This document shows, in pieces, positions 6 through 10,010 of a DNA stretch of 10,010 nucleotides. This stretch comes from a virus (Monodnaviria > Loebvirae > Hofneiviricota > Faserviricetes > Tubulavirales > Inoviridae). The position numbers and the translations under genes were made by a program. Location of the stretch: IMG/VR virus record IMGVR_UViG_2721755647_000001. One strand, 5' to 3'. Position 1 is the stretch's first letter. The number at the start of each line of letters is the position of its first letter. The notes beneath the pieces were generated by a model. It had not been told where the DNA came from, did no database searches, and saw nothing but the letters and a program-made list of their open reading frames with translations.

Positions 6-146
6 TTACTTTCCTTGTGTTGGTTTAGTAGTGGATTGTTGAGCTTTTTCTAAAAGCCTTTTTGCTTTAGATGTGTCCAAACCATCTTGGGCAAAGCCTT
101 GTTGCTTATCATTCTGTTTTTGTTCACTTTTTTTTGGCGTATTCAT
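6..146 (-). CDS. Hypothetical small Lys/Gln-rich protein (about 46 aa, MNTPKKSEQKQNDKQQGF...) in the non-repeated left flank
   Basis: In-frame ATG at 146-144 on the - strand within the 6..320 ORF; weak RBS; sits behind a leader homologous to the one upstream of the 140-aa membrane-protein gene in copy 2. Low-complexity sequence, so it may not be a real gene. Confidence 0.2.
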   Translation of the reverse strand: MNTPKKSEQKQNDKQQGFAQDGLDTSKAKRLLEKAQQSTTKPTQGK

Positions 147-215
147 CAGTATATACTTTGACTCGTTTTGTTTATCTCGATGACTTACTTTTTGTTTAAG
201 TTTTGCACAAACTAG

Positions 216-261
216 AACGTGCAGTGTTGGTAATACTGCACGTTTGTACCATTCGTGGTAC
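216..261 (-). terminator. Twin stem-loops: AACGTGCAGT-9nt-ACTGCACGTT (216-244) and GTACCA-ttcg-TGGTAC (246-261); a terminator or attenuator after the RHH gene, or possibly (-) strand-origin-like hairpins
   Basis: Perfect inverted repeats read directly from the sequence, immediately after the stop codon (262-264) of the - strand RHH ORF; a U-rich tract follows on the - strand in copy 2. Confidence 0.4.
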
Positions 262-444
262 TTAATCCTTTTGTTTGGCAGACATGAGATCTTCTGCTGC
301 ATCTTTAGAGTAGTTATCAATCAGATAACCTAAAATCTCTGTCCATGTAATTGTTTTTCCTAGTTTTACACTGGCATTTATAGCCAGTCGTTCTAGTTTC
401 ATTTTTCTTTCTTCCGTCACGTTATAAGTCGTGCGCTTTGCCAT
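262..444 (-). CDS. Ribbon-helix-helix (CopG/Arc/MetJ-like) putative transcriptional repressor, 60 aa
   Basis: MAKRTTYNVTEERKMKLERLAINASVKLGKTITWTEILGYLIDNY has the beta-strand then two helices pattern of CopG (recalled RLTITLSESVLENLEKMAREMGLSKSAMISVALENY); divergent from gII; present in both repeat copies. RBS is weak. Confidence 0.5.
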   Translation of the reverse strand: MAKRTTYNVTEERKMKLERLAINASVKLGKTITWTEILGYLIDNYSKDAAEDLMSAKQKD

Positions 445-571
445 TTTTTACGCTCGTTCAATGCAATATTTGAAGTGAGTATACATGCTCATGAACTCAT
501 ATCATCCAAGCCTCTTGAACTCACTAGCTCACTGATGTAATGTTAAAACACTAATGAACTACTGAACTCAT
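445..571. promoter_or_regulatory. Divergent control region between the RHH gene and gII, with four TGAACTCA/TGAACTAC repeats, a CTCACT direct repeat and a candidate gII promoter (TTGAAC-17nt-TAATGT, 515-543); possible (+) origin or operator
   Basis: Repeats at 492-499, 516-523, 555-562 and 563-570 read from the sequence; -35/-10-like hexamers with 17-nt spacing. The canonical M13 nick motif was not found by eye. Confidence 0.4.
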
Positions 572-613
572 GTGTTAGTAAGTCGTCATTTTTGCAATTT
601 TGAGGATTTATTC

Positions 614-1666
614 GTGATCGATTGGCTTACCGGGATTTTCCCTTGCACACACAAACCGCTTCCGGCGGGGAGTGTTGTCAGCGTTGATGCTGACGGTGCA
701 ATTGAGTGGGAAACCGTTAAGCGACTGACTGTTCGCGGCTCGCATGAAGCAACGATGAAAGTACGATCGATAGGATCTAATGGCGAAGGTAAAGCGACAC
801 ATTTGTACATTGATGGTAATCCGTCCAAGTTTTTGCAGGGGCATTCTGTTGTTGGGTCGGATGATATACAAGGGCTCATGTTGACGGTCTATGCCAGGAT
901 TTTATCCTTATTGAATATTCCTCATGATTTAGCGTCTTATAAAGCTGTTATAGCAGGTCAGTATAAAATTTCACGTGTTGACATTAATTACATGTATTCA
1001 TTATCTACGCTAGAAAATGTCAGATCATGGCTTTATGCCGCCGAATTTAAAGCTAAAACACGCCATGGTCGCGCATGTGGGAAAGGCGGTACAGTTTATT
1101 TAGGTAAAAACTCCCGTCGATGGAGTCTGAAATTTTATTCAAAATATGATGAACACGTTTCGGGTAAAAAAGGGCACCAGATAGCCGAAGATTTTGTACG
1201 AGCCGGGTTACTGGACTGGACGAAAGATAAATTACGTATTGAATTAACATTAAGAACAACTGAGCTTATTGATTTAAATTTAACGCTTGGCGCTAACTGG
1301 AATATGAAAACACCACGTCAATTATTCTCTGAATATGTAGGGAGAATAGAAATGAATCAGAATGCTATTTTAAGTGATGAAAAAATAACGAAACTGCCAA
1401 GAAAAATACAGTCAACTTATTTACTTTGGAAACAAGGGGCTAACATGAAAGAAATGTTACCTCATAACACTTTTTATCGCCATAGAAGAGAATTGCTTTC
1501 GTTCGGTATCGATATTAATTTCTATTGTGATTCACCAGACTCTAATAACGTTGTTCCGCTAATAAGAACGCTGGAAGCCAAGCCAGTGGAAATCCCCTTA
1601 TGGATTTATGAGAAAGGTTTTATTTTCGATTACAACCGTATTTCGCACGCCAGTAGCTGGCATTAA
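614..1666 (+). CDS. gII: Gene II replication initiation (nicking-closing) protein; likely GTG start at 614 preceded by GAGGA (the ORF track begins at an upstream GTG at 572)
   Basis: From 614 the product begins (M)IDWL..., like M13 pII MIDML...; internal NPSKFLQGHSVVGSDD resembles M13 pII SPAKVLQGHNVFGTTD; first gene of the Ff order. Confidence 0.8.
   Translation: MIDWLTGIFPCTHKPLPAGSVVSVDADGAIEWETVKRLTVRGSHEATMKVRSIGSNGEGKATHLYIDGNPSKFLQGHSVVGSDDIQGLMLTVYARILSLLNIPHDLASYKAVIAGQYKISRVDINYMYSLSTLENVRSWLYAAEFKAKTRHGRACGKGGTVYLGKNSRRWSLKFYSKYDEHVSGKKGHQIAEDFVRAGLLDWTKDKLRIELTLRTTELIDLNLTLGANWNMKTPRQLFSEYVGRIEMNQNAILSDEKITKLPRKIQSTYLLWKQGANMKEMLPHNTFYRHRRELLSFGIDINFYCDSPDSNNVVPLIRTLEAKPVEIPLWIYEKGFIFDYNRISHASSWH
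1352..1666 (+). CDS. gX: Gene X protein, an in-frame internal restart within gII (104 aa)
   Basis: In-frame ATG at 1352 preceded by GGAG at 7-nt spacing; analogous to M13 pX (the C-terminal third of pII). An alternative in-frame ATG at 1304 has no SD. Confidence 0.45.
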   Translation: MNQNAILSDEKITKLPRKIQSTYLLWKQGANMKEMLPHNTFYRHRRELLSFGIDINFYCDSPDSNNVVPLIRTLEAKPVEIPLWIYEKGFIFDYNRISHASSWH

Positions 1667-1677
1667 AGGAAAGTAAT

Positions 1678-1995
1678 ATGTCTAATTATGGTCTTTTCGT
1701 TAAGGGTAAAATGTTGGGAGCCCGCCAACGTAATAAAGTTAATGGTCAGGGCTATTATAATGAAATTGGTATTGGCCTTGAAATACCTGATGGTTTTGGT
1801 GGTACAAAGCAGGATCAAATTATTATTCGAGTTTCTCAGACTCTCGTTAACGCAGGTCTAATGAACCAGGCGAATGCTTTCATTGGGAAATTAGTTCAAA
1901 TTCCTGTCTATGTCCGTGCGTGGTCAATGGAGGGTAGGGAAGGTGTAACTTATAATGTTTCTTCCGATGGTGGCATCGCAGAGATCAAAGGTTAA
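1678..1995 (+). CDS. gV: Gene V-position protein, putative ssDNA-binding protein (105 aa; sequence diverged from M13 pV)
   Basis: Strong RBS AAGGAAAG; sits between gII and gVII as in Ff. Assigned by position only; no similarity to recalled M13 gVp was seen. Confidence 0.55.
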   Translation: MSNYGLFVKGKMLGARQRNKVNGQGYYNEIGIGLEIPDGFGGTKQDQIIIRVSQTLVNAGLMNQANAFIGKLVQIPVYVRAWSMEGREGVTYNVSSDGGIAEIKG

Positions 1996-1997
1996 AT

Positions 1998-2084
1998 ATG
2001 GACGATGTTATTCAAATTTTGATAGCGTCTGGCATCGTTATTTCTTTTGGCCTCGGCGCGATTACTGCGGGGGTCTTTCGTTAA
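1998..2084 (+). CDS. gVII: Gene VII minor coat protein (28 aa, MDDVIQILIASGIVISFGLGAITAGVFR)
   Basis: Small hydrophobic ORF right after gV; resembles M13 pVII (...ALGIIAGGQR); RBS AAAGG. Confidence 0.6.
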   Translation: MDDVIQILIASGIVISFGLGAITAGVFR

Positions 2085-2179
2085 TGTATATCGTTTATTT
2101 CTTCGGGGCTTATACCTTTGGTTTTGCCCTTTTCTATGCGGTCGGTTCATTTAAATCATTTTCTGACCGATTAATGTAA
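2084..2179 (+). CDS. gIX: Gene IX minor coat protein (31 aa, MYIVYFFGAYTFGFALFYAVGSFKSFSDRLM)
   Basis: Start overlaps the gVII stop (TAATG); small hydrophobic protein at the expected position. Confidence 0.6.
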   Translation: MYIVYFFGAYTFGFALFYAVGSFKSFSDRLM

Positions 2180-2198
2180 CCTTAATGGAGTTATTCCT

Positions 2199-2441
2199 AT
2201 GAAAATTCTGTCTACTGTTAAATATAAAGTTGCTCTGGCTTCAACTGCGCTTTTTGTTTCTGCAAGTTCTTTTGCGGCTGAAGGCGCTACAGGTGGTACT
2301 GATTATGCAGGTCAGGCAATGGATGCTTTGTTGACTCAGGCAAATGATCTCATTGGTAAAGTATGGCCTGTTGTTGTGGCTGTGGTTGGCGCTGGGCTTG
2401 CCATTCGTATTTTCAAAAAATTCTCTTCAAAAGCGGTTTGA
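2199..2441 (+). CDS. gVIII: Gene VIII major coat protein precursor (80 aa, signal peptide plus mature coat)
   Basis: Signal peptide ...[13 protein letters not shown], then an acidic N-terminus, hydrophobic core and basic C-terminus ...[11 protein letters not shown], close to recalled IKe g8p ...[11 protein letters not shown]; RBS GGAG. Confidence 0.9.
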
Positions 2442-2450
2442 ATTTCACTC

Positions 2451-2475
2451 AGGGGCACTCGTTGCCCCTTTATTA
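2451..2475 (+). terminator. Rho-independent terminator after gVIII (AGGGGCA-ctcgt-TGCCCCT then TTTATT)
   Basis: 7-bp GC-rich stem with a 5-nt loop and T-rich tail read from the sequence; Ff phages have a strong terminator at this position. Confidence 0.6.
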
Positions 2476-2487
2476 AAGCGGGTTACT

Positions 2488-3738
2488 ATGAAAAGGAAAA
2501 TATTAATTCTTTCCGCTGTCCTCATTTCTCCTTTTTCACATGCTGAGTCATGGGAAAGCATTACTAAATCCACTTATCAAAGCTCTGCCTACGCTGAAAG
2601 TAAGCAAATAACCAATCAGGATGGCTCTAAGTCAACGGTTTACTATATTGATGCTGCTATGCAGGCCTCCGCTTGTCAGGGTGCTAAATCCAGTGCTCAG
2701 AGTGTATTTACTCAGGTTAAACCAACTTATGAGGGTATCTGGCCTGATTCTGAATTCCGTCTTGTTTTTACTGGTGATTGTACTTACAGCGATTCACCAG
2801 GGCAGAAGGATAAATATTGGTCTTTAACGGCTTATATTGTTGGTGATATTCAGCGTTCTGTTCCTGATGAAAAACCTACTGACCCGACACCAGAAGAAAT
2901 TTGTGAAGCGAAGCCGCCAGAAGAAGGTGTATTTAATAATGTTGATTCATATGATGGTGGTCGTTATATCTACTATAACGGCTGTGAATATGAGGCTACT
3001 GGTGTCATTGTTTGTCAGGGTGATGGTACTGTTTGCGCTGCAACATGGAAGCCTACAGGTACTGTAGCTGACCCCTCTGATAAACCCTCAACCCCCCAAA
3101 ATGGTGGTGGTGAGTCTGGCGGTGGTGAGTCTGGCGGTGGTGAGTCCGGTGGCGGTAGTTCTGGCGGTGGTGAGTCCGGTGGCGGTAGTTCTGGCGGTGG
3201 CTTTAGTGGTTCCAGTCTTTCTAAAGGTGATATTCAGTCTGCTATCGAAGGTGCTTCACCCAAAATAGCCAGCGATATTCATGATAAATTAACGGAGAAA
3301 GACACTTCATCAGATGATAAAAAAAATGCCGATGAACAAACTAGGAATAATATAAATCGTCTTGACGATTCCATTAACAATCTTACGCGGGGGGCTGGCC
3401 GTTTTGCTGACCCTTCAGGTGGTGATTCTCGTTATGGAAAGGGCGACTCTGAATTAGATGGCGCTTCTACTTTGGCTGATTCTGAATTGGGAATTGAAAA
3501 GGATTCTCACGGTGCTTTATGGGAAGCATTTTTAAATAAAGGTGCTATGCTGCCTAATTTACCCAATGGTAACGGCTGCTCTGATTTTATTATTTTTCCC
3601 GGAGAGGTTTATCAGATTGATATTGGTTGCGATAAATTACTGACTATTAAAGATGTTCTTTCATGGGTTTTTTATTGCCTTACGTTCTGGTATGTCTTTA
3701 CTTCTTTAACTTCATTGCTTCGCAAAGGGGGTGAGTGA
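2488..3738 (+). CDS. gIII: Gene III adsorption protein (416 aa) with signal peptide, Gly-rich linker and C-terminal membrane anchor; true start 2488, not the ORF-track 2344
   Basis: [19 protein letters not shown] signal; [10 protein letters not shown] repeats; hydrophobic C-terminus like M13 pIII; starts just after the gVIII terminator. Confidence 0.85.
3103..3204 (+). repeat. Tandem 15-bp (GGxGGxGAGTCy) repeats encoding the pIII glycine-rich linker, including a perfect 30-bp duplication (3133-3162 = 3163-3192)
   Basis: Read directly from the sequence; encodes [33 protein letters not shown]. Confidence 0.85.
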
Positions 3739-4079
3739 TGCCTTTATTATTAGGTATTCCTGCATTGTTGCGTTTTCTTATTGGTCTTGTTCCTTTGTTT
3801 ATTGGCTATGTGGCGAGTTTTTTAGCTCGACTTGCTACCAGAACAGGATTAATCGCCTTTGCATTGGTCGCATTAATTACAACAACTGTTACGCTTTTAA
3901 TGCAGTACCTTGCTGAGGTCATGTATAACGGTTTACCTGCTGATTTCTCCCATTTAATGGCGTCTGTATTGCCTGACCATTTTCAGGCGTGTGTTAACGT
4001 TATTATGGTTACTCGTATCAGTGTTTTTGTTTTCGATTTAAAACAAAAATTTCTTGATTATGCAAACAGGGTGATTTAA
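3738..4079 (+). CDS. gVI: Gene VI minor coat protein (113 aa); ATG at 3738 overlaps the gIII stop (TGATG)
   Basis: [14 protein letters not shown]... matches recalled M13 pVI MPVLLGIPLLLRFL...; C-terminal FVFDLKQK resembles M13 FIFDVKQK. Confidence 0.85.
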   Translation: MPLLLGIPALLRFLIGLVPLFIGYVASFLARLATRTGLIAFALVALITTTVTLLMQYLAEVMYNGLPADFSHLMASVLPDHFQACVNVIMVTRISVFVFDLKQKFLDYANRVI

Positions 4080-5174
4080 ATGGCGGTTCATGTAGTAACA
4101 GGCAAATTAGGCTCAGGCAAGACACTTGTTAGTGTTTCCAGAATACAGGAAAGACTTGCTAAGGGTTGTCCTGTTGCCACTAATCTTGATCTTAAATTGC
4201 ATAATATGCCTATGGTTGGGCGTTATGCGAAAAAAACGCGCGTTATTCGCATTCCTGACAAGCCTTCATTAAATGATTTACTTGCTATTGGTATTGGGAA
4301 TACATCTTACGATGAATCCCGTAATGGCCTCCTTGTACTTGATGAATGTGGTACTTGGTTTAATTCCCGCTCATGGGGTGATAAAGACAGACAACCTGTT
4401 ATTGACTGGTTTTTACATGCCAGAAAATTAGGCTGGGATATTATATTTTTGATTCAGGATATTTCGATAATGGATAAGCAAGCTCGTCTGGCGCTTGCTG
4501 AGCATGTTGTTTATTGTCGCCGTTCAGATAAATTAAACATTCCTTTTGTTGGCTCCATTATGAATTTGGTTTCAGGGGCGCGATTTTCTTTACCAAAGGT
4601 ACACTTTGGCATTGTCAAATATGGTGATAACGTTAATTCAATTACTGTTGATAAATGGATATACACCGGAAAATCATTATATTCCGCCTACAATACAAAA
4701 CAGGTTTTTACTGATAACTATCCGCATGGTGCTTATTCGCTTTTGCCACCATTTATCACGCACGGTCAATTTTCTGTTCACAGAGGATTTAATTATTATA
4801 TGCGCCTCACGAAAATTTATTTTCGCAAATCGAACCGTCTTATATTAATGCTTTCTTTTTTGGCGCTGGGGCTTGCGCTTGGTTTCTGGCTCCAGTCTGG
4901 AAAGAATGTTGATGAAATCTCCGCTATTAAATCTGCTTATGCTGAACAGGCGAGGGCGGTAACGCCTGATTCGTCCAGTGACTTACCCCGACTTTCTATT
5001 AATTCTTTTTCACAACTTGGCTTTGACGTTTCCGTTACGTTTGTTGATGCAAAAGGTACGAAATATCAGTATTTTGATTTGATTAAAGATGGTTATTCCG
5101 TTGATATTAAAGATGCCTGTCGTGTTGTTATTAGAAAAGGCCGTTATTTACAGACTGTTATCTGTCAGGAGTAA
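4080..5174 (+). CDS. gI: Gene I assembly ATPase (Zot-family, 364 aa) with Walker A GKLGSGKT
   Basis: MAVHVVTGKLGSGKTLVSV... closely matches recalled M13 pI MAVYFVTGKLGSGKTLVSV...; also LLVLDECGTWFN and DWFLHARKLGWDIIFL. Confidence 0.9.
   Translation: MAVHVVTGKLGSGKTLVSVSRIQERLAKGCPVATNLDLKLHNMPMVGRYAKKTRVIRIPDKPSLNDLLAIGIGNTSYDESRNGLLVLDECGTWFNSRSWGDKDRQPVIDWFLHARKLGWDIIFLIQDISIMDKQARLALAEHVVYCRRSDKLNIPFVGSIMNLVSGARFSLPKVHFGIVKYGDNVNSITVDKWIYTGKSLYSAYNTKQVFTDNYPHGAYSLLPPFITHGQFSVHRGFNYYMRLTKIYFRKSNRLILMLSFLALGLALGFWLQSGKNVDEISAIKSAYAEQARAVTPDSSSDLPRLSINSFSQLGFDVSVTFVDAKGTKYQYFDLIKDGYSVDIKDACRVVIRKGRYLQTVICQE
4800..5174 (+). CDS. gXI: Gene XI protein, an in-frame internal restart within gI (124 aa)
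   Basis: Internal Met gives MRLTKIYFRKSNRLILMLSFLALG, resembling M13 pXI MKLTKIYLKKFSRVL... Confidence 0.5.
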   Translation: MRLTKIYFRKSNRLILMLSFLALGLALGFWLQSGKNVDEISAIKSAYAEQARAVTPDSSSDLPRLSINSFSQLGFDVSVTFVDAKGTKYQYFDLIKDGYSVDIKDACRVVIRKGRYLQTVICQE

Positions 5175-5181
5175 TATTATT

Positions 5182-6447
5182 ATGCGCTCTGTTATTGTTG
5201 CTTTTTTATTTGCCTGTTCATTCTGCGTTTCTGCTGAAACTGTTAATTTAAACAATTCATCTGTTCGCTCATTTGTTCAGTGGTATTCTTCAAAAACTGG
5301 CAAGCCTGTTATTGTTAATCCTGATATTAAAGGAAACGTAACCGTATTTAATGCTGATGTTAATCCAACAAATATTGATGATTTCTTTAAGTCTGTTCTG
5401 AATGCTAACGGTTTTGTCATGCTTTCTGGCAATCCTGCGGTAGTCTCTTTGCCGTCTAAATTACCTTCACAGATGGTTTCGGATTCCGATGATTCTGATA
5501 ACCAGTCTTATGATACTTTTCCTTCTGAGCCATCTTACCAGCCAGTACCTGTGGCGCTTACGGTCAGAAATTTTAAGCTGACAAAAGTTAGATCGTCCGA
5601 TGTTCAGCAACTGATTAAAATTTATCTTGATTCTAATGGTGGTGGTAATGTCGTGGATTATCCAGGCAATAACTCGCTGATTGTTTCTGCGCCTGACGAG
5701 CTGCTGCCGGTTCTGTCCGATTTTATCAATTCTGTGGATGTTGCCCGCGATCAGGTTCTCATTCAGTCGCTGATGTTTGAAACCAGCTTGTCTGATGGCG
5801 TTGATTTATCGTTTGCGGCAGGTTCTGCATCCGGTCATAAGGTTGCGGGGGGCTTTAATACTTCTGCACTGGGTAGCGCTCTTTCTACGGCGGGCGGTTC
5901 TTTTGGTATTTTTGATGGTAACGTGTTGGCGCTGTCTCTGCGTGCTGTCCAGAGTAATTCACGCTCTAAGGTGATTTCAACGCCGCGTATTCTTACTCAG
6001 TCTGGTCAGACTGGTTACATTTCCGTAGGTAAGAATGTGCCGTTTATCACCGGAAAGGTAACGGGCGAATCTGCCGGGGTAAATAATCCGTTTCAGACTA
6101 TCGAGCGTCATGATGTTGGCGTTTCTCTCAAGGTAACGCCTGTTGTCATGGGTAACGGGCAACTAGTTCTGACTATCGACACTCGCGCTGATTCAATCAG
6201 CAATGATGATCAGGCATCCGATATTATTACTAATCAGCGCCAGATTCAGACGACAGTCCAGATTAAGGATGGTCAGACGTTGTTATTGGGGGGGCTTATC
6301 GATTCATCGTTTAGCAATGCTGAGCGTTCAGTTCCAGTTATAAGTAAAATTCCTCTTATAGGCTGGATTTTCAGTAGCAAGGCAGACAGCAATGAACAGC
6401 GTATTATGTATATTTTGCTTACAGCACATATCATTCGTCCACTTTGA
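5182..6447 (+). CDS. gIV: Gene IV secretin (outer-membrane export channel, 421 aa); true start 5182 (MRSVIVAFLF...), not the ORF-track 5089
   Basis: Signal peptide, then extended similarity to recalled M13 pIV (NNSSVRSFVQWYS vs NNSPLRDFVTWYS; VPFITGKVTGESAGVNNPFQTIER conserved); RBS AGGAG. Confidence 0.9.
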   Translation: MRSVIVAFLFACSFCVSAETVNLNNSSVRSFVQWYSSKTGKPVIVNPDIKGNVTVFNADVNPTNIDDFFKSVLNANGFVMLSGNPAVVSLPSKLPSQMVSDSDDSDNQSYDTFPSEPSYQPVPVALTVRNFKLTKVRSSDVQQLIKIYLDSNGGGNVVDYPGNNSLIVSAPDELLPVLSDFINSVDVARDQVLIQSLMFETSLSDGVDLSFAAGSASGHKVAGGFNTSALGSALSTAGGSFGIFDGNVLALSLRAVQSNSRSKVISTPRILTQSGQTGYISVGKNVPFITGKVTGESAGVNNPFQTIERHDVGVSLKVTPVVMGNGQLVLTIDTRADSISNDDQASDIITNQRQIQTTVQIKDGQTLLLGGLIDSSFSNAERSVPVISKIPLIGWIFSSKADSNEQRIMYILLTAHIIRPL

Positions 6448-6490
6448 TGGATAGCGGGTAGGTGCGTGAGCCCTGCTCGCTATCCATCAA
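6444..6490 (+). other. Long hairpin (13-bp perfect stem TTGATGGATAGCG / CGCTATCCATCAA with a structured interior) overlapping the gIV stop; packaging-signal-like and/or terminator
   Basis: Inverted repeat read directly; in Ff phages the packaging-signal hairpin lies immediately downstream of gIV. Confidence 0.55.
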
Positions 6491-6516
6491 ATGGACATTA
6501 TTGATTGGGGTAACTA

Positions 6517-6825
6517 ATGGATTCTTATGGGATTTTATCTGCTCTGGCAGAACGAACGATTACAGCGGAAGAAGCAAAAACAATGACACTTGCAGCCAGA
6601 AGTTCTTCGGCTCAGGTAAATGAAGCATCACTTGCTCTGTTACTGATTGATAATACTCTGGATGCGATCAAAGCAGCTGCCAGTGAAGGGAAAGGATACA
6701 CTTTACTTCCTTCTTATGAGATTTCTTTAAAAGCCATTGATTTAGCAGAAGAATTTTTAAGGAAACAATGCGGCTATGTTATTGATAACCAGAATGGCGT
6801 AAGGACGGTCTATTGGTTTATATGA
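6517..6825 (+). CDS. Hypothetical protein (102 aa), first cargo gene after the packaging hairpin
   Basis: ORF with a GGGG-containing RBS 6 nt upstream; no recognisable family; followed by a stem-loop. Confidence 0.45.
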   Translation: MDSYGILSALAERTITAEEAKTMTLAARSSSAQVNEASLALLLIDNTLDAIKAAASEGKGYTLLPSYEISLKAIDLAEEFLRKQCGYVIDNQNGVRTVYWFI

Positions 6826-6828
6826 TAA

Positions 6829-6869
6829 CCCCGGACAGTGACAAAACTTGCTTTTGTTAGTGTCCGGGG
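6829..6869 (+). terminator. Extended imperfect stem-loop (CCCCGGACA...TGTCCGGGG with inner ACAAAA/TTTTGT pairing) between the two + strand cargo genes; a T7 run lies about 22 nt downstream
   Basis: Read from the sequence; the spacing to the T-run is not typical of an intrinsic terminator, so it could be an attenuator or structured RNA. Confidence 0.3.
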
Positions 6870-6942
6870 TTGGCCAAGCCGAACAATTCTGTTTTTTTAG
6901 CGTTATTGCTGATTCGGCGCGGCAGCATTACGAGGAGATAAA

Positions 6943-7176
6943 ATGCAATTTTTCACATCCAGCGATACTGTAATGTTATGTGCGAAGACCTGCGATCGCT
7001 GTGGTCGCCATGCGAAGACGGTGGTAGATGACATTGAGTTCAATGAGTTTCTGTCTGTTAATCACTTAGCTGGATACGGTTCAATTTTTGGTGACAGTAA
7101 TCGCTTAAAACTGGATTTATGCCAACATTGCCTGAAAGACGTCCTGGGCCAGTGGATTACGGTCTGTGACCAATGA
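6943..7176 (+). CDS. Hypothetical Zn-ribbon protein (77 aa; Cys17-x2-Cys20 ... Cys60-x2-Cys63)
   Basis: Strong RBS GAGGAG 5 nt upstream; paired CxxC motifs; no family recognised. Confidence 0.55.
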   Translation: MQFFTSSDTVMLCAKTCDRCGRHAKTVVDDIEFNEFLSVNHLAGYGSIFGDSNRLKLDLCQHCLKDVLGQWITVCDQ

Positions 7177-7214
7177 CGGCACCGGTAACGCCAGTTCCCA
7201 CCATCCTTACCATT

Positions 7215-7247
7215 GGTGCGCATAATGTACGACTCGTTATGTTGAAA
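7215..7247 (+). other. dif-like XerC/XerD recombination site, candidate attP of an integrative element exploiting Xer: perfect XerC arm GGTGCGCATAA, then TGTA, an atypical spacer, and a XerD-arm-like TTATGTTGAAA
   Basis: The first 15 nt (GGTGCGCATAATGTA) equal E. coli dif (GGTGCGCATAA-TGTATA-TTATGTTAAAT); the XerD-like arm matches 9 of 11 but is displaced 5 bp, giving an 11-bp rather than 6-bp central region. Confidence 0.55.
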
Positions 7248-7248
7248 A

Positions 7249-7285
7249 GGCCGCTGCGAAAATCGTATCCCGCAGCGGCCTCTTT
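7249..7285. terminator. Bidirectional rho-independent terminator (GGCCGCTGCG-12nt-CGCAGCGGCC) flanked by A-run and T-run, between the convergent cargo modules
   Basis: 10-bp GC-rich perfect stem; TCTTT downstream on +, TTTTC downstream on -; sits between the + ORF ending at 7176 and the - ORF ending at 7312. Confidence 0.7.
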
Positions 7286-7311
7286 AGCATAACGTCATTG
7301 TGCGAACCAAT

Positions 7312-7791
7312 TTATATAGAAATGAAAAACTCCTCTTCATTCCTTTTTTTATAATTGTCATCCCATATAAGTTTTATTCGGTATTTAGTTTTACTTCCAA
7401 AGCTTAGTCCCGCTAAAATTTCAATCCCATGTTGCGGGTGTAATACTTCATATGGAAATTTATCTTCTACATCATGCATGTAAAGATATTCATTGCCATC
7501 GTTATCAGGGAAATGAATTTCTATATTTTTAGCCTCAACTTTCCCTCTATTAAATATCTTGAGTCTATAGTTGTTTTTGGCTATTTTTACGAGGCGGGCA
7601 CCAAGCTCAGCCTTCATCTCATTAATTGCTGACTTTGTTTCTTTTTCTAGAAGCAACTTACGTAACCTGTCTTGCTCATCCTTTATAACCTTTTGTTCTC
7701 TATCACTTTTTCTCGACTTCACTTCTGATGATATGATAGTGTAAATCGATACTACAAGCGCAGCTAAAGCGATGGCATCACTCGTTGTCAT
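7312..7791 (-). CDS. Hypothetical membrane-anchored protein (159 aa): N-terminal TM helix, charged coiled-coil-like segment, C-terminal globular domain
   Basis: Start overlaps the stop of the upstream Zn-ribbon gene (TAATG), RBS AAGGA; hydrophobic AIALAALVVSIYTIISS then KSRKSDREQKVIKDEQDRLRKLLLEKE; about 30% GC by eye. Confidence 0.6.
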   Translation of the reverse strand: MTTSDAIALAALVVSIYTIISSEVKSRKSDREQKVIKDEQDRLRKLLLEKETKSAINEMKAELGARLVKIAKNNYRLKIFNRGKVEAKNIEIHFPDNDGNEYLYMHDVEDKFPYEVLHPQHGIEILAGLSFGSKTKYRIKLIWDDNYKKRNEEEFFISI

Positions 7792-8066
7792 TATTTAATC
7801 CTTATATTTTTACTTCCTTTAAATGCCTTTTTGAGCATATCATTAAACTGTTTTTGAATATCTTTTGTTAACTCTTCTTTTATCTCATCCACATGGGCGT
7901 CAATACTCACCCCGTTTTCTTGGATTAAATCATCATTAGTGAATTCTTTCCCGCAGCCTACACATCTGACGACTTCAGACTCTTCCTCGTGTTCCATCTC
8001 TGTATTTCCGCACACAGGACATAGCAGGGTGATATTTCTATTGTATTTCTCAGGATTCAGTTTCAT
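7791..8066 (-). CDS. Hypothetical Zn-ribbon protein (91 aa; CPVCG-x15-CVGCG) with an acidic/basic helical tail
   Basis: Good RBS GAGAGGAA; classic C-x2-C-x15-C-x2-C; translationally coupled to the downstream membrane-protein gene. Confidence 0.6.
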   Translation of the reverse strand: MKLNPEKYNRNITLLCPVCGNTEMEHEEESEVVRCVGCGKEFTNDDLIQENGVSIDAHVDEIKEELTKDIQKQFNDMLKKAFKGSKNIRIK

Positions 8067-8094
8067 ATATTTCCTCTCTTCTACGTTTTATTGA

Positions 8095-8517
8095 TTACCA
8101 GTAATATGAATTTCTTCTGTGCCACCAATAAAGCAGCCCGTATCCGATGATAAGAATTCCGAAAAACATCAACGACATTCCCCAGCCAGTTCCATACCAC
8201 GAAACCATATCATCGAAAACCAATCCACCCGTTTCACGTACTCCGGCAGCTTCCTTAAGGATTGGTTTGAATACCGGAATCAGAAGGGCAATCGCCAGTG
8301 GAGCACCCCAGCGAACAAGACCTGTTTCCATTTTGATCCCGAAAAAGATCCCCGCCCCGACAACAAGCAGCCAGACTATCAGGCCAGGCGCAGTTTCCAG
8401 TGCTGTTTGCCATTCAACATCGAAAGTTTTCATTAGCCAGGCAACAACTGCCAGACAGAAAGCAAATACGCCGACGACAACCAGTTCAACGCCGCTTGTT
8501 TCGTTGTTTCTACTCAT
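8095..8517 (-). CDS. Hypothetical integral membrane protein (140 aa, about 4 predicted TM helices)
   Basis: Four hydrophobic stretches of about 20 aa; Trp/Tyr-rich C-terminus; the antisense + ORFs are low-complexity artefacts; about 48% GC by eye, unlike its neighbours. Confidence 0.6.
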   Translation of the reverse strand: MSRNNETSGVELVVVGVFAFCLAVVAWLMKTFDVEWQTALETAPGLIVWLLVVGAGIFFGIKMETGLVRWGAPLAIALLIPVFKPILKEAAGVRETGGLVFDDMVSWYGTGWGMSLMFFGILIIGYGLLYWWHRRNSYYW

Positions 8518-8559
8518 CCTTTTGATCCTTTTTCACTGTTCAAAATTCGCACAATAAAG

Positions 8560-8605
8560 AACGTGCAGTGTTGGTAATACTGCACGTTTGTACCATTCGT
8601 GGTAC
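8560..8605 (-). terminator. Twin stem-loops, copy 2 (same as 216-261)
   Basis: Same sequence at +8344 offset; lies between the RHH gene and the 140-aa membrane-protein gene on the - strand. Confidence 0.4.
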
Positions 8606-8788
8606 TTAATCCTTTTGTTTGGCAGACATGAGATCTTCTGCTGCATCTTTAGAGTAGTTATCAATCAGATAACCTAAAATCTCTGTCCATGTAATTGTTT
8701 TTCCTAGTTTTACACTGGCATTTATAGCCAGTCGTTCTAGTTTCATTTTTCTTTCTTCCGTCACGTTATAAGTCGTGCGCTTTGCCAT
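8606..8788 (-). CDS. Ribbon-helix-helix putative repressor, copy 2
   Basis: Same 60-aa product as 262..444. Confidence 0.5.
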   Translation of the reverse strand: MAKRTTYNVTEERKMKLERLAINASVKLGKTITWTEILGYLIDNYSKDAAEDLMSAKQKD

Positions 8789-8915
8789 TTTTTACGCTCG
8801 TTCAATGCAATATTTGAAGTGAGTATACATGCTCATGAACTCATATCATCCAAGCCTCTTGAACTCACTAGCTCACTGATGTAATGTTAAAACACTAATG
8901 AACTACTGAACTCAT
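8789..8915. promoter_or_regulatory. Divergent control region with TGAACTCA repeats, copy 2
   Basis: Same as 445-571. Confidence 0.4.
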
Positions 8916-8957
8916 GTGTTAGTAAGTCGTCATTTTTGCAATTTTGAGGATTTATTC

Positions 8958-10010
8958 GTGATCGATTGGCTTACCGGGATTTTCCCTTGCACACACAAAC
9001 CGCTTCCGGCGGGGAGTGTTGTCAGCGTTGATGCTGACGGTGCAATTGAGTGGGAAACCGTTAAGCGACTGACTGTTCGCGGCTCGCATGAAGCAACGAT
9101 GAAAGTACGATCGATAGGATCTAATGGCGAAGGTAAAGCGACACATTTGTACATTGATGGTAATCCGTCCAAGTTTTTGCAGGGGCATTCTGTTGTTGGG
9201 TCGGATGATATACAAGGGCTCATGTTGACGGTCTATGCCAGGATTTTATCCTTATTGAATATTCCTCATGATTTAGCGTCTTATAAAGCTGTTATAGCAG
9301 GTCAGTATAAAATTTCACGTGTTGACATTAATTACATGTATTCATTATCTACGCTAGAAAATGTCAGATCATGGCTTTATGCCGCCGAATTTAAAGCTAA
9401 AACACGCCATGGTCGCGCATGTGGGAAAGGCGGTACAGTTTATTTAGGTAAAAACTCCCGTCGATGGAGTCTGAAATTTTATTCAAAATATGATGAACAC
9501 GTTTCGGGTAAAAAAGGGCACCAGATAGCCGAAGATTTTGTACGAGCCGGGTTACTGGACTGGACGAAAGATAAATTACGTATTGAATTAACATTAAGAA
9601 CAACTGAGCTTATTGATTTAAATTTAACGCTTGGCGCTAACTGGAATATGAAAACACCACGTCAATTATTCTCTGAATATGTAGGGAGAATAGAAATGAA
9701 TCAGAATGCTATTTTAAGTGATGAAAAAATAACGAAACTGCCAAGAAAAATACAGTCAACTTATTTACTTTGGAAACAAGGGGCTAACATGAAAGAAATG
9801 TTACCTCATAACACTTTTTATCGCCATAGAAGAGAATTGCTTTCGTTCGGTATCGATATTAATTTCTATTGTGATTCACCAGACTCTAATAACGTTGTTC
9901 CGCTAATAAGAACGCTGGAAGCCAAGCCAGTGGAAATCCCCTTATGGATTTATGAGAAAGGTTTTATTTTCGATTACAACCGTATTTCGCACGCCAGTAG
10001 CTGGCATTAA
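8958..10010 (+). CDS. gII: Gene II replication initiation protein, copy 2 (ORF track starts at 8916)
   Basis: Same product as the first-copy gII. Confidence 0.8.
   Translation: MIDWLTGIFPCTHKPLPAGSVVSVDADGAIEWETVKRLTVRGSHEATMKVRSIGSNGEGKATHLYIDGNPSKFLQGHSVVGSDDIQGLMLTVYARILSLLNIPHDLASYKAVIAGQYKISRVDINYMYSLSTLENVRSWLYAAEFKAKTRHGRACGKGGTVYLGKNSRRWSLKFYSKYDEHVSGKKGHQIAEDFVRAGLLDWTKDKLRIELTLRTTELIDLNLTLGANWNMKTPRQLFSEYVGRIEMNQNAILSDEKITKLPRKIQSTYLLWKQGANMKEMLPHNTFYRHRRELLSFGIDINFYCDSPDSNNVVPLIRTLEAKPVEIPLWIYEKGFIFDYNRISHASSWH
9696..10010 (+). CDS. gX: Gene X in-frame restart, copy 2
   Basis: Same as 1352..1666. Confidence 0.45.
   Translation: MNQNAILSDEKITKLPRKIQSTYLLWKQGANMKEMLPHNTFYRHRRELLSFGIDINFYCDSPDSNNVVPLIRTLEAKPVEIPLWIYEKGFIFDYNRISHASSWH

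Follow-up and report, generated by a model that had tools for sequence, protein, structure and literature searches.

A filamentous prophage of Escherichia coli, represented by the IMG/VR record IMGVR_UViG_2721755647_000001, carries on its minus strand a block of three small genes (positions 7312–8517) that an initial annotation had proposed as a single exclusion, defence or toxin–antitoxin-like operon. The window referred to below is the whole stretch of DNA analysed, 10,010 bases long. Our main finding is that this operon looks composite. The second and third genes, which encode a 91-residue zinc-ribbon protein and a 159-residue membrane-anchored protein, appear from their distribution to form an autonomous unit, and the first gene, encoding a protein with four transmembrane (TM) segments, is probably a separate accessory gene of enterobacterial inoviruses that stays in place while the genes behind it change. 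We propose that the pair is a toxin–antitoxin (TA)-like abortive-infection (Abi) or defence module with the 159-residue protein as its effector, a reading that on the comparative evidence we hold to be about evenly balanced between right and wrong.

The block is read leftward and consists of the 4-TM gene (140 residues; 8095–8517), the Zn-ribbon gene (91 residues; 7791–8066) and the gene for the 159-residue protein (7312–7791). The open reading frame (ORF) list and the sequence bear out the tight packing originally described. A 28-nucleotide (nt) gap (8067–8094) separates the 4-TM stop codon from the Zn-ribbon start codon, a single base is common to the Zn-ribbon stop and the start of the 159-residue protein (AAATAATGACA, a TAATG overlap), and each ATG is preceded by its own ribosome-binding-site-like motif (AAGGA at 9 nt for the 4-TM gene, GAGG at 7 nt for the Zn-ribbon gene, and AAGGA at 8 nt for the last gene). 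Judged by homology, all three ORFs are real genes, because homologues of matching length number from dozens to hundreds for each.

Conservation of the Zn-ribbon/159-residue pair

The family of the 159-residue protein comprises 1,294 clusters at 50% identity with E <= 1e-3, 482 of them with E <= 1e-10, and its members are uniformly about 150–160 residues long with no fusions. Scanning a single genome for each species, we obtained 41 loci in alpha-, beta- and gammaproteobacteria and in a few metagenome-assembled genomes (MAGs) assigned elsewhere, and the Zn-ribbon ORF lies immediately upstream in 40 of these. Further scans of metagenome and viral sequences added 84 loci, with the pair present in 80 of the 80 that could be evaluated, which brings the adjacency to 120 of 121 evaluable loci overall. 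About 30 of the genome contexts are independent. Of the 40 genome loci with the pair, 25 have a 4-nt overlap between the two genes and another 7 a 1-nt overlap. At L136 and L141, the Zn ribbon seemed to be missing only because ORFs in this GC-rich DNA had been called too long. Two small, adjacent, co-oriented and overlapping genes that are conserved as a pair constitute the layout of type II TA systems, and the relative properties of the products are also TA-like, with a small acidic protein (pI 5.2) encoded upstream of a larger basic one (pI 8.6).

The pair is widely found on mobile DNA. Among its plasmid matches, 85 of 93 are conjugative. In four enterobacterial loci (L008, L013, L015 and L026), an ISNCY-family transposase gene is found about 120–320 nt ahead of the pair, and in three loci (L026, L077 and L078) the last ~57 codons of the 4-TM gene remain in front of an intact pair. 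Together, the upstream transposases and the truncated 4-TM remnants suggest that the pair has been carried out of inoviruses by transposition. When the 279 neighbouring ORFs were clustered, no universal third gene emerged; the recurrent neighbours were the ISNCY transposase (4 loci), recombinases, and a 123–127-residue ORF in two plasmid lineages. A near-identical mobile element of at least 10–20 kb (L030–L038 and L062), bearing a pair with 43% identity to the window protein, is common to Hydrogenophaga, Variovorax, a Rhizobiaceae MAG, Stutzerimonas stutzeri and a MAG labelled Bacteroidetes. The pair also occurs in a MAG labelled Methanoculleus (L052), and an inovirus 97–100% identical to the E. 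coli one lies in a contig labelled as a Candidatus Nanosynbacter MAG (L022). Both of these occurrences most likely reflect binning contamination rather than true hosts.

The 4-TM gene as a probably separate accessory gene

The 4-TM protein (phrog_4174, function unknown) has hydrophobic segments at residues 10–28, 43–61, 65–83 and 111–129, in keeping with the four TM-like segments first assigned to it, and gave no match in Pfam, NCBIfam, PADLOC or the Protein Data Bank (PDB). In particular, no PADLOC model of the Kiwa KwaA or lambda RexB type matches it, and the corresponding partners KwaB and RexA are absent. Its homologues fall into 49 clusters, and all those with a source name come from Enterobacterales. 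In every context examined, the gene lies in an inovirus or an apparent remnant of one, after the regulator gene and before variable cargo. It is present in E. coli (L002–L004), in Yersinia enterocolitica (L018), where ORFs of 54, 105 and 257 residues follow it, in Lonsdalea (L020), where a 251-residue ORF follows, and alone in Mixta (L016). A near-identical copy (98%) precedes unrelated cargo in other E. coli inoviruses, either an AbiJ-like gene or a restriction endonuclease (REase) gene with DUF6953, and in all the gene is seen with four other unrelated cargo sets as well as alone. A 159-residue ORF beside the Lonsdalea 4-TM gene was compared with the 159-residue family and is not homologous to it.

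These observations bear on whether the block could be a true three-component system, in which the 4-TM protein would be a membrane effector or channel regulated by the other two proteins. Such a system would account for the order and spacing of the trio, which are kept over wide divergence in about 20 Enterobacterales loci (4-TM 39–100%, Zn ribbon 52–100% and 159-residue protein 64–97% identity), and for the comparison with the closest sibling phage, in which the three genes are swapped as one cassette. We nevertheless regard it as very unlikely. Of 40 Enterobacterales loci, about half have the 4-TM gene in front of the pair, and every locus outside that order lacks it; about 100 loci hold the pair without it, and the pair persists behind truncated copies. 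The 4-TM gene, for its part, is followed by other genes in E. coli, Yersinia and Lonsdalea. Base composition differs as well, with 47.8% GC in the 4-TM gene and 35.9% and 34.6% in the paired genes, a 12-point difference, against 41% in the phage core. The proposal that the three genes form one functional system is therefore not supported, because the 4-TM gene and the pair occur separately.

Sequence and predicted structure of the paired proteins

The Zn-ribbon protein passes the NCBIfam model NF047912 (ECs_2282_CxxC) with 65.5 bits against a cut-off of 37 (E 2.9e-18, residues 12–65), and RefSeq accordingly names it an ECs_2282 family putative zinc-binding protein, a family name that is uninformative on function. 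Its C4 motif (C16, C19, C35 and C38), recognized from the outset as a zinc ribbon, does not vary among 22 homologues and is retained by 98 of 99 unique family members. Alignment of the homologues shows an invariant CPxCG...CxxC pattern and a conserved C-terminal tail, AFKGSKNIRIK in the window protein, whose consensus A-F-[KR]-G-[SN]-K-N-[IF]-[RK]-[IF]-K is nearly invariant over the 99 unique sequences. The AlphaFold2 model (predicted local distance difference test score, pLDDT, of 81) has a three-stranded ribbon, a long helix at residues 52–83 and a low-confidence tail. A tail that is nearly invariant in sequence and yet modelled with low confidence is as expected of a peptide that folds on a partner. 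Searches of the PDB with Foldseek returned generic Zn-ribbon matches only, with a weak resemblance to the ribbons of eS27, TFIIB, TFIIE, RPA12 and Cas12f that lies below every family threshold. Weak PADLOC matches to PDC-S64 (E 4.8e-7), HEC-08 (2.8e-4) and PDC-M14A (2.1e-3) span about 50–80 residues and fall in internal parts of proteins of 150–360 residues; they indicate a small domain in common with the Zn-ribbon protein rather than membership of those systems, and the 159-residue partner is unmatched in them.

The 159-residue protein (phrog_6723) has one N-terminal TM segment at about residues 5–23 by hydropathy, followed by a long charged helix. Its AlphaFold2 model (pLDDT 84) consists of a helix at residues 3–59 and a generic beta-sandwich at residues 63–158, which agrees with the earlier description of a single-pass membrane protein with a C-terminal globular domain. 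No Pfam or NCBIfam model matches the protein, PADLOC returned 0 families at E <= 1, and neither the alignment nor the AlphaFold model revealed a catalytic motif or pore-like domain. A weak match of residues 1–63 to a holin family (phrog_1350, E 0.0059) was considered and rejected as an identity for this protein: the match is weak, no endolysin lies nearby, and filamentous phages have no lysis cassette.

One locus departs from the usual pairing. In an Acidobacteriota MAG (L057, 8930–10456), a 347-residue DUF4238 protein (Pfam 6.4e-33; PADLOC DUF4238-Pers) replaces the Zn ribbon and ends 6 nt before a 158-residue member of the 159-residue family. Beyond its DUF4238 domain, this protein has a C-terminal extension with the tail ...LFKGESQNIRVS... 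(FKGESQNIRV), which is like the tail of the Zn-ribbon protein. The likeness is unlikely to have arisen by chance, and it suggests that the upstream partner may be exchanged while the putative docking peptide is kept.

Genomic neighbourhood and possible roles of the pair

The genes around the pair are of the kinds that commonly accompany defence and TA systems. At one locus, a pair with 36% identity directly adjoins a SIR2-STAND NTPase, an AAA_13 ATPase and a type I restriction system, and on plasmids of Klebsiella, E. coli, Serratia and Cupriavidus the pair is found near TacAT, ParDE, NACHT, an S-4TM effector, UvrD, TrlF or parAB. For 33 representative independent loci, we examined the 279 ORFs lying no more than 5 kb from the pair. 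The frequent families include ATPases of the AbiEii and OLD types (AAA_21, 7 ORFs; AAA_15, 4; OLD TOPRIM, 2), and the other neighbours comprise 7 phage integrases, 3 resolvases, type I restriction subunits, DNA methylases, SLATT_4 and transposases. PADLOC models assigned to these ORFs were GajA (2) and GajB (2) of Gabija, type I REases (2), a type I methyltransferase, type II methyltransferases (2) and AriA-, Old- or PtuA-like proteins. The genomic context thus makes the pair a candidate for the defence or TA-like module initially suggested, given its conserved adjacency and overlap, its occurrence beside defence genes at several loci and on plasmids and other mobile elements, and the Abi- and nuclease-type cargo that occupies the same prophage slot (see below).

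Two other roles on mobile elements can be weighed against the same neighbourhoods. One is non-lethal exclusion, in which the 159-residue protein would tether the Zn ribbon under the inner membrane and so block the entry or early establishment of DNA from plasmids or from other phages, related inoviruses among them. Superinfection-exclusion genes usually sit beside the repressor-side gene of a prophage, and the present cargo has that position; in addition, the ribbons of eS27, TFIIB, TFIIE, RPA12 and Cas12f, which the Zn ribbon weakly resembles, contact nucleic acid, the proteins have no recognizable catalytic or pore-like domain, and the pair is common on conjugative plasmids. Known exclusion proteins, however, are usually specific to one phage group, whereas the pair is found in three proteobacterial classes and on many types of element. 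Since, moreover, the ribbon matches stay sub-threshold and the antitoxin–toxin-like layout and defence-island context fit an Abi or TA role at least equally well, we consider exclusion unlikely.

The other role is pure addiction, in which post-segregational killing would stabilize the carrier element, here the prophage array, with no anti-phage role. Type II TA pairs typically show this gene order and overlap, the pair adjoins parAB on a Cupriavidus plasmid and other TA pairs on Klebsiella plasmids, an ISNCY transposase lies directly upstream in the four enterobacterial loci mentioned, and prophages of the YpfPhi type are unstable (PMC4266046), all of which would fit an addiction module. Many copies are nevertheless chromosomal and lie in apparent defence islands beside restriction–modification, Gabija and SIR2-STAND systems, and the other cargo of the inovirus slot is of Abi or nuclease type rather than made up of classical addiction modules. 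Addiction as the sole role is quite unlikely on this evidence; addiction as such is not exclusive of a role in defence.

A role outside genetic conflict, such as a change in host physiology affecting the envelope, stress or virulence-related fitness, also deserves mention. The CUS-1 and YpfPhi prophages have modest fitness effects in animals (PMC4266046), and many genes near the pair have ordinary metabolic or regulatory functions. Against this, strict coupling of two genes, patchy spread on mobile elements across distant phyla and defence neighbours are typical of conflict systems, and we attach little probability to a purely physiological role.

Several points weigh against an Abi or TA-like function for the pair itself. 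No component matches a described system in Pfam, NCBIfam, PADLOC-DB v2.0.0 or the PDB, the Zn ribbon giving sub-threshold matches only, just as the initial annotation could name no system with this architecture; and neither protein of the pair is homologous to a known toxin or antitoxin family above cut-off in Pfam, NCBIfam or PADLOC. The predicted beta-sandwich of the 159-residue protein resembles a binding fold and is not an obvious killing domain. The neighbourhood evidence consists of plain ORF counts rather than background-corrected enrichment, and among the many ordinary neighbours are LysR, MFS and chemotaxis genes. Mutual information between the Zn-ribbon and 159-residue sequences (99 unique pairs, effective number of sequences 57) gave no coherent signal. 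The L057 tail is a single locus, with a motif spacing one residue longer, and the co-divergence of the Enterobacterales trio leaves some room for a lineage-specific functional link to the 4-TM protein.

An exchangeable cargo slot beside attL

We searched 5,426 complete E. coli genomes for the block and its flanks. The whole block is present in 28 of them, and many more have only the flanks, which are about 96% identical and enclose other sequence. Five cargo sets occupy this slot, between attP and the regulator gene, in E. coli inoviruses. The first is that of the present window, with the 4-TM, Zn-ribbon and 159-residue proteins. The second (strain P4) combines a 4-TM gene with genes for a 264-residue DpnII-MboI REase-domain protein (PF18742, 7e-59; PADLOC Aga_Helical-REase, 1e-34) and a DUF6953 protein. 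The third (strains JA0266 and AB_24_S34) pairs a 4-TM gene with one for a 309-residue AbiJ_NTD4/DUF7014 protein of the STM4504/CBY_0614 family (PDC-S32), annotated in one genome as an abortive infection family protein. The fourth (strain RIVM_C036204; L005) has no 4-TM gene and encodes proteins of 46, 91 and 230 residues, and the fifth (strain 90-9280) encodes proteins of 132 and 120 residues. Conserved flanks, unrelated gene sets and dispensable cargo characterize the slot as a prophage cargo hotspot.

In the RIVM_C036204 phage, the backbone proteins are identical to those of the window while all three block genes are missing, so the whole block is dispensable for the phage. This marks the block as accessory cargo rather than morphogenesis genes, in keeping with a Pfam search in which none of the three proteins matched inovirus morphogenesis or replication proteins (gI–gIX). 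The window itself spans more than one phage genome, and its two copies are not the same throughout: positions 1–213 differ from 8345–8557, and the copies become identical again from 214/8558. The first 230 bases of the window have 100% identity to the 46/91/230-residue cargo of RIVM_C036204. Because the two copies differ in cargo, the source genome holds two tandem inoviruses with different cargo; the tandem copies are a natural cassette swap within one array, and the boundaries of the swappable cassette fall at about 7311 and 8557.

Comparable slots have been described in other small inoviruses that integrate at dif. Filamentous prophages of Vibrio have a variable locus beside a transcriptional regulator that is enriched in defence and TA genes and exchanges its cargo between close relatives (PMC11630473), and in YpfPhi and CUS-1 the attL-adjacent ORFs, of unknown function, differ between phages (PMC4266046). 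The E. coli slot resembles both in being a variable locus beside the regulator. It differs in that the former study concerns Vibrio and the latter merely notes the ORFs as unknown.

Transcription and termination of the block

Upstream of the 4-TM gene lies a gene for a 60-residue basic protein (8606–8788, minus strand; phrog_2503, no Pfam match) in the position of a phage repressor. A regulatory role would be in keeping with that position, by analogy with the siblings, where it is occupied by a helix-turn-helix (HTH) transcriptional regulator. The sibling proteins are unrelated HTH regulators of 148–150 residues, so the regulator gene is exchangeable as well. The sole sigma-70-like promoter site on the minus strand between 7100 and 9000 (8849–8822) lies upstream of the 60-residue gene, and the promoter scan found no such site in 8518–8605 and none for the three-gene operon. 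The transcription unit may therefore start one gene earlier than the block and comprise four genes, and the 60-residue gene is, by its arrangement, probably co-transcribed with the cargo. The 88-nt intergenic region between it and the 4-TM gene (8518–8605, minus strand) folds into two hairpins (−26.4 kcal/mol, z −3.9) and contains a run rich in U; it may act as a leaky terminator.

The strong terminator assigned to the end of the block was also found. This hairpin has an inner stem at 7246–7284 with outer pairs reaching 7229/7298, and RNA folding of 7225–7320 gives 17 paired positions and −39.8 kcal/mol, with z = −7.5 against shuffles. A simple terminator scan did not call it, because the perfect 11-bp core alone was paired, leaving a loop that exceeds the 3–8 limit, and because the T-run is short. 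The hairpin region is 88–98% conserved in sibling prophages with other cargo. It is the centre of an imperfect palindrome of about 100 nt (7212–7311; 70% self reverse-complement match), and an inverted dif-like sequence, GGTTCGCACAATGACGTTATGCTAAAG (minus strand, 7311–7285), and the dif-like attP core (7215–7242, plus strand) flank it. Lying within a palindrome between dif-like sites, the hairpin may have a second role in XerCD integration, within an attP that folds as a single strand; the palindrome with its flanking dif-like sites is reminiscent of the attP of CTXphi, which folds in this way.

Part of the hairpin region (7238–7309; 2501–2571 in L063) recurs at about 93% identity on more than 400 plasmids, with 393 of 438 records conjugative. 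These matches were rejected as copies of the module, since they consist of the 70-nt hairpin region 3' of an AbiJ/HEPN-like gene. In an IncFIB example, it lies directly 3' of an STM4504/CBY_0614 gene, the AbiJ/HEPN-like family that is also found in sibling inovirus cargo. Sequence similarity of this kind suggests that an Abi cassette has been exchanged between plasmids and dif-integrating inoviruses.

The phage genome and its integration at dif

The window is a filamentous phage genome repeated head-to-tail with a period of 8,344 nt, a tandem, dif-integrated Ff/IKe-like inovirus of E. coli. Reading rightward, its genes encode a G2P-type replication protein (gII; Pfam Phage_CRI and G2P_X_C matches), gV, gVIII, gIII with Gly-rich linkers in its product, gVI, gI/Zot and the gIV secretin, followed by two small ORFs. 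The gIV gene is the sole part of the window that matches the IKe and PEar phages, and the three block genes are absent from both. Positions 7200–8600 have 100% identity to the chromosome of E. coli ECONIH2, where exactly these genes are annotated in three tandem copies. In a collection of 50,697 phage records, megablast with the block and tblastn with the 159-residue and Zn-ribbon proteins gave no match.

The attP core, a dif-like XerC/D site (GGTGCGCATAATGTACGACTCGTTATGT; 7215–7242, plus strand), has 20 of 28 matches to E. coli dif and 11 of 11 in the XerC arm. In ECONIH2, the array ends at about window position 7229 and is followed by a perfect 28/28 dif. The left junction adjoins hipA in two other strains (L004 and L006), and the cargo block lies directly beside this attL junction in the prophage. 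Two further features lie on the other side of the attachment site. A 77-residue ORF just before attP (6943–7176, plus strand; phrog_5435, function unknown) has two CxxC pairs (C17/C20 and C60/C63); conserved in the sibling L005, it is a second small putative zinc-binding protein, across the attachment site from the block. At 6443–6491, a 20-nt inverted repeat with 90% complementarity and a 9-nt loop overlaps the 3' end of the gIV secretin gene and reaches just past it, and may serve as a terminator or belong to the phage origin or packaging region.

Relation to known systems and proposed mechanism

In phage lambda, the exclusion genes of cI-rexA-rexB are co-transcribed with the repressor, and RexB is a polytopic membrane protein. 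The present prophage is similar in that accessory genes, including that of the 4-TM protein, lie directly downstream of the lysogeny regulator and are probably expressed in the lysogen. It differs in that neither the 4-TM nor the 159-residue protein matches PADLOC, which includes Rex-type models, and co-transcription with the 60-residue gene is here something we infer. The MqsR/MqsA system offers a second comparison, since the upstream Zn-ribbon protein has CxxC...CxxC like the N-terminal zinc ribbon of that antitoxin. MqsA-family matches are weak (TIGR03830, E 0.0013, 18.5 bits against a cut-off of 61.8; YgiT finger, E 0.022), and 3gn5 appears low in the Foldseek results. Unlike MqsA, the Zn-ribbon protein has no HTH; the toxin gene comes first in mqsRA, and the 159-residue partner is not an MqsR-like RNase.

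TA toxins anchored in the membrane have a precedent in the toxFtsL:PanA pair, whose toxin has an FtsL-like helix (PMC10440598). There is no sequence homology between the two systems. Panacea lies upstream there and a Zn ribbon here, the toxin has a GAF domain there and a C-terminal beta-sandwich here, and the predicted topologies are opposite, with the C-terminus cytoplasmic in the 159-residue protein. DUF4238 itself has been validated as a defence that needs a single gene, encoded in P2/P4 hotspots (Rst_DUF4238; Rousset et al. 2022, PMC9122126). It is the DUF4238 protein of L057 that sits upstream of a 159-residue family gene and has a Zn-ribbon-like tail; the proteins of the window themselves have no DUF4238 domain. 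A literature search under the protein accessions and the family name ECs_2282 did not find the 4-TM and Zn-ribbon/159-residue cargo. The general kind is thus known, as prophage hotspot cargo and as a TA- or Abi-like pair, and the family is undescribed in the libraries and literature searched.

For a TA-like Abi or defence module, we infer a scheme for topology, tail docking, effector identity and toxicity or anti-phage activity as follows. The block would be read leftward in the lysogen, probably together with the 60-residue regulator gene. The Zn-ribbon protein would be cytoplasmic and translationally coupled to the 159-residue protein, whose N-terminal helix would lie in the inner membrane with the coiled helix and beta-sandwich facing the cytoplasm. 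Oligomerization of this effector through its TM segment and long helix would disturb the membrane itself or a process bound to it. The Zn-ribbon protein would restrain or trigger the effector, its tail docking on the beta-sandwich, and the ribbon would perhaps sense nucleic acid or a phage product.

A more far-reaching proposal, which we put forward tentatively and think doubtful as a whole, takes the 159-residue family to be a new membrane-anchored effector or adaptor onto which interchangeable inputs (a Zn-ribbon sensor or, rarely, a DUF4238 protein) dock through the tail peptide. This would be an undescribed two-component anti-phage or Abi architecture. The slot at attL would then be a defence reservoir of E. 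coli, and the 4-TM protein would be a separate inovirus exclusion factor.

Should the pair prove inactive, the block would be part of an ordinary prophage moron region. If it is active, the pair would represent a new defence or TA family with about 1,300 clusters at 50% identity across Proteobacteria, built from 250 residues in total with no enzymatic domain and with an interaction motif simple enough to test. An exchangeable defence slot would then be a feature of the small filamentous prophages that integrate at dif in E. coli, among them the relatives of CUS-1 and YpfPhi; the ORFs beside attL in CUS-1 and YpfPhi have been listed as unknown for twenty years. Such a slot could help to explain why such unstable prophages are kept.

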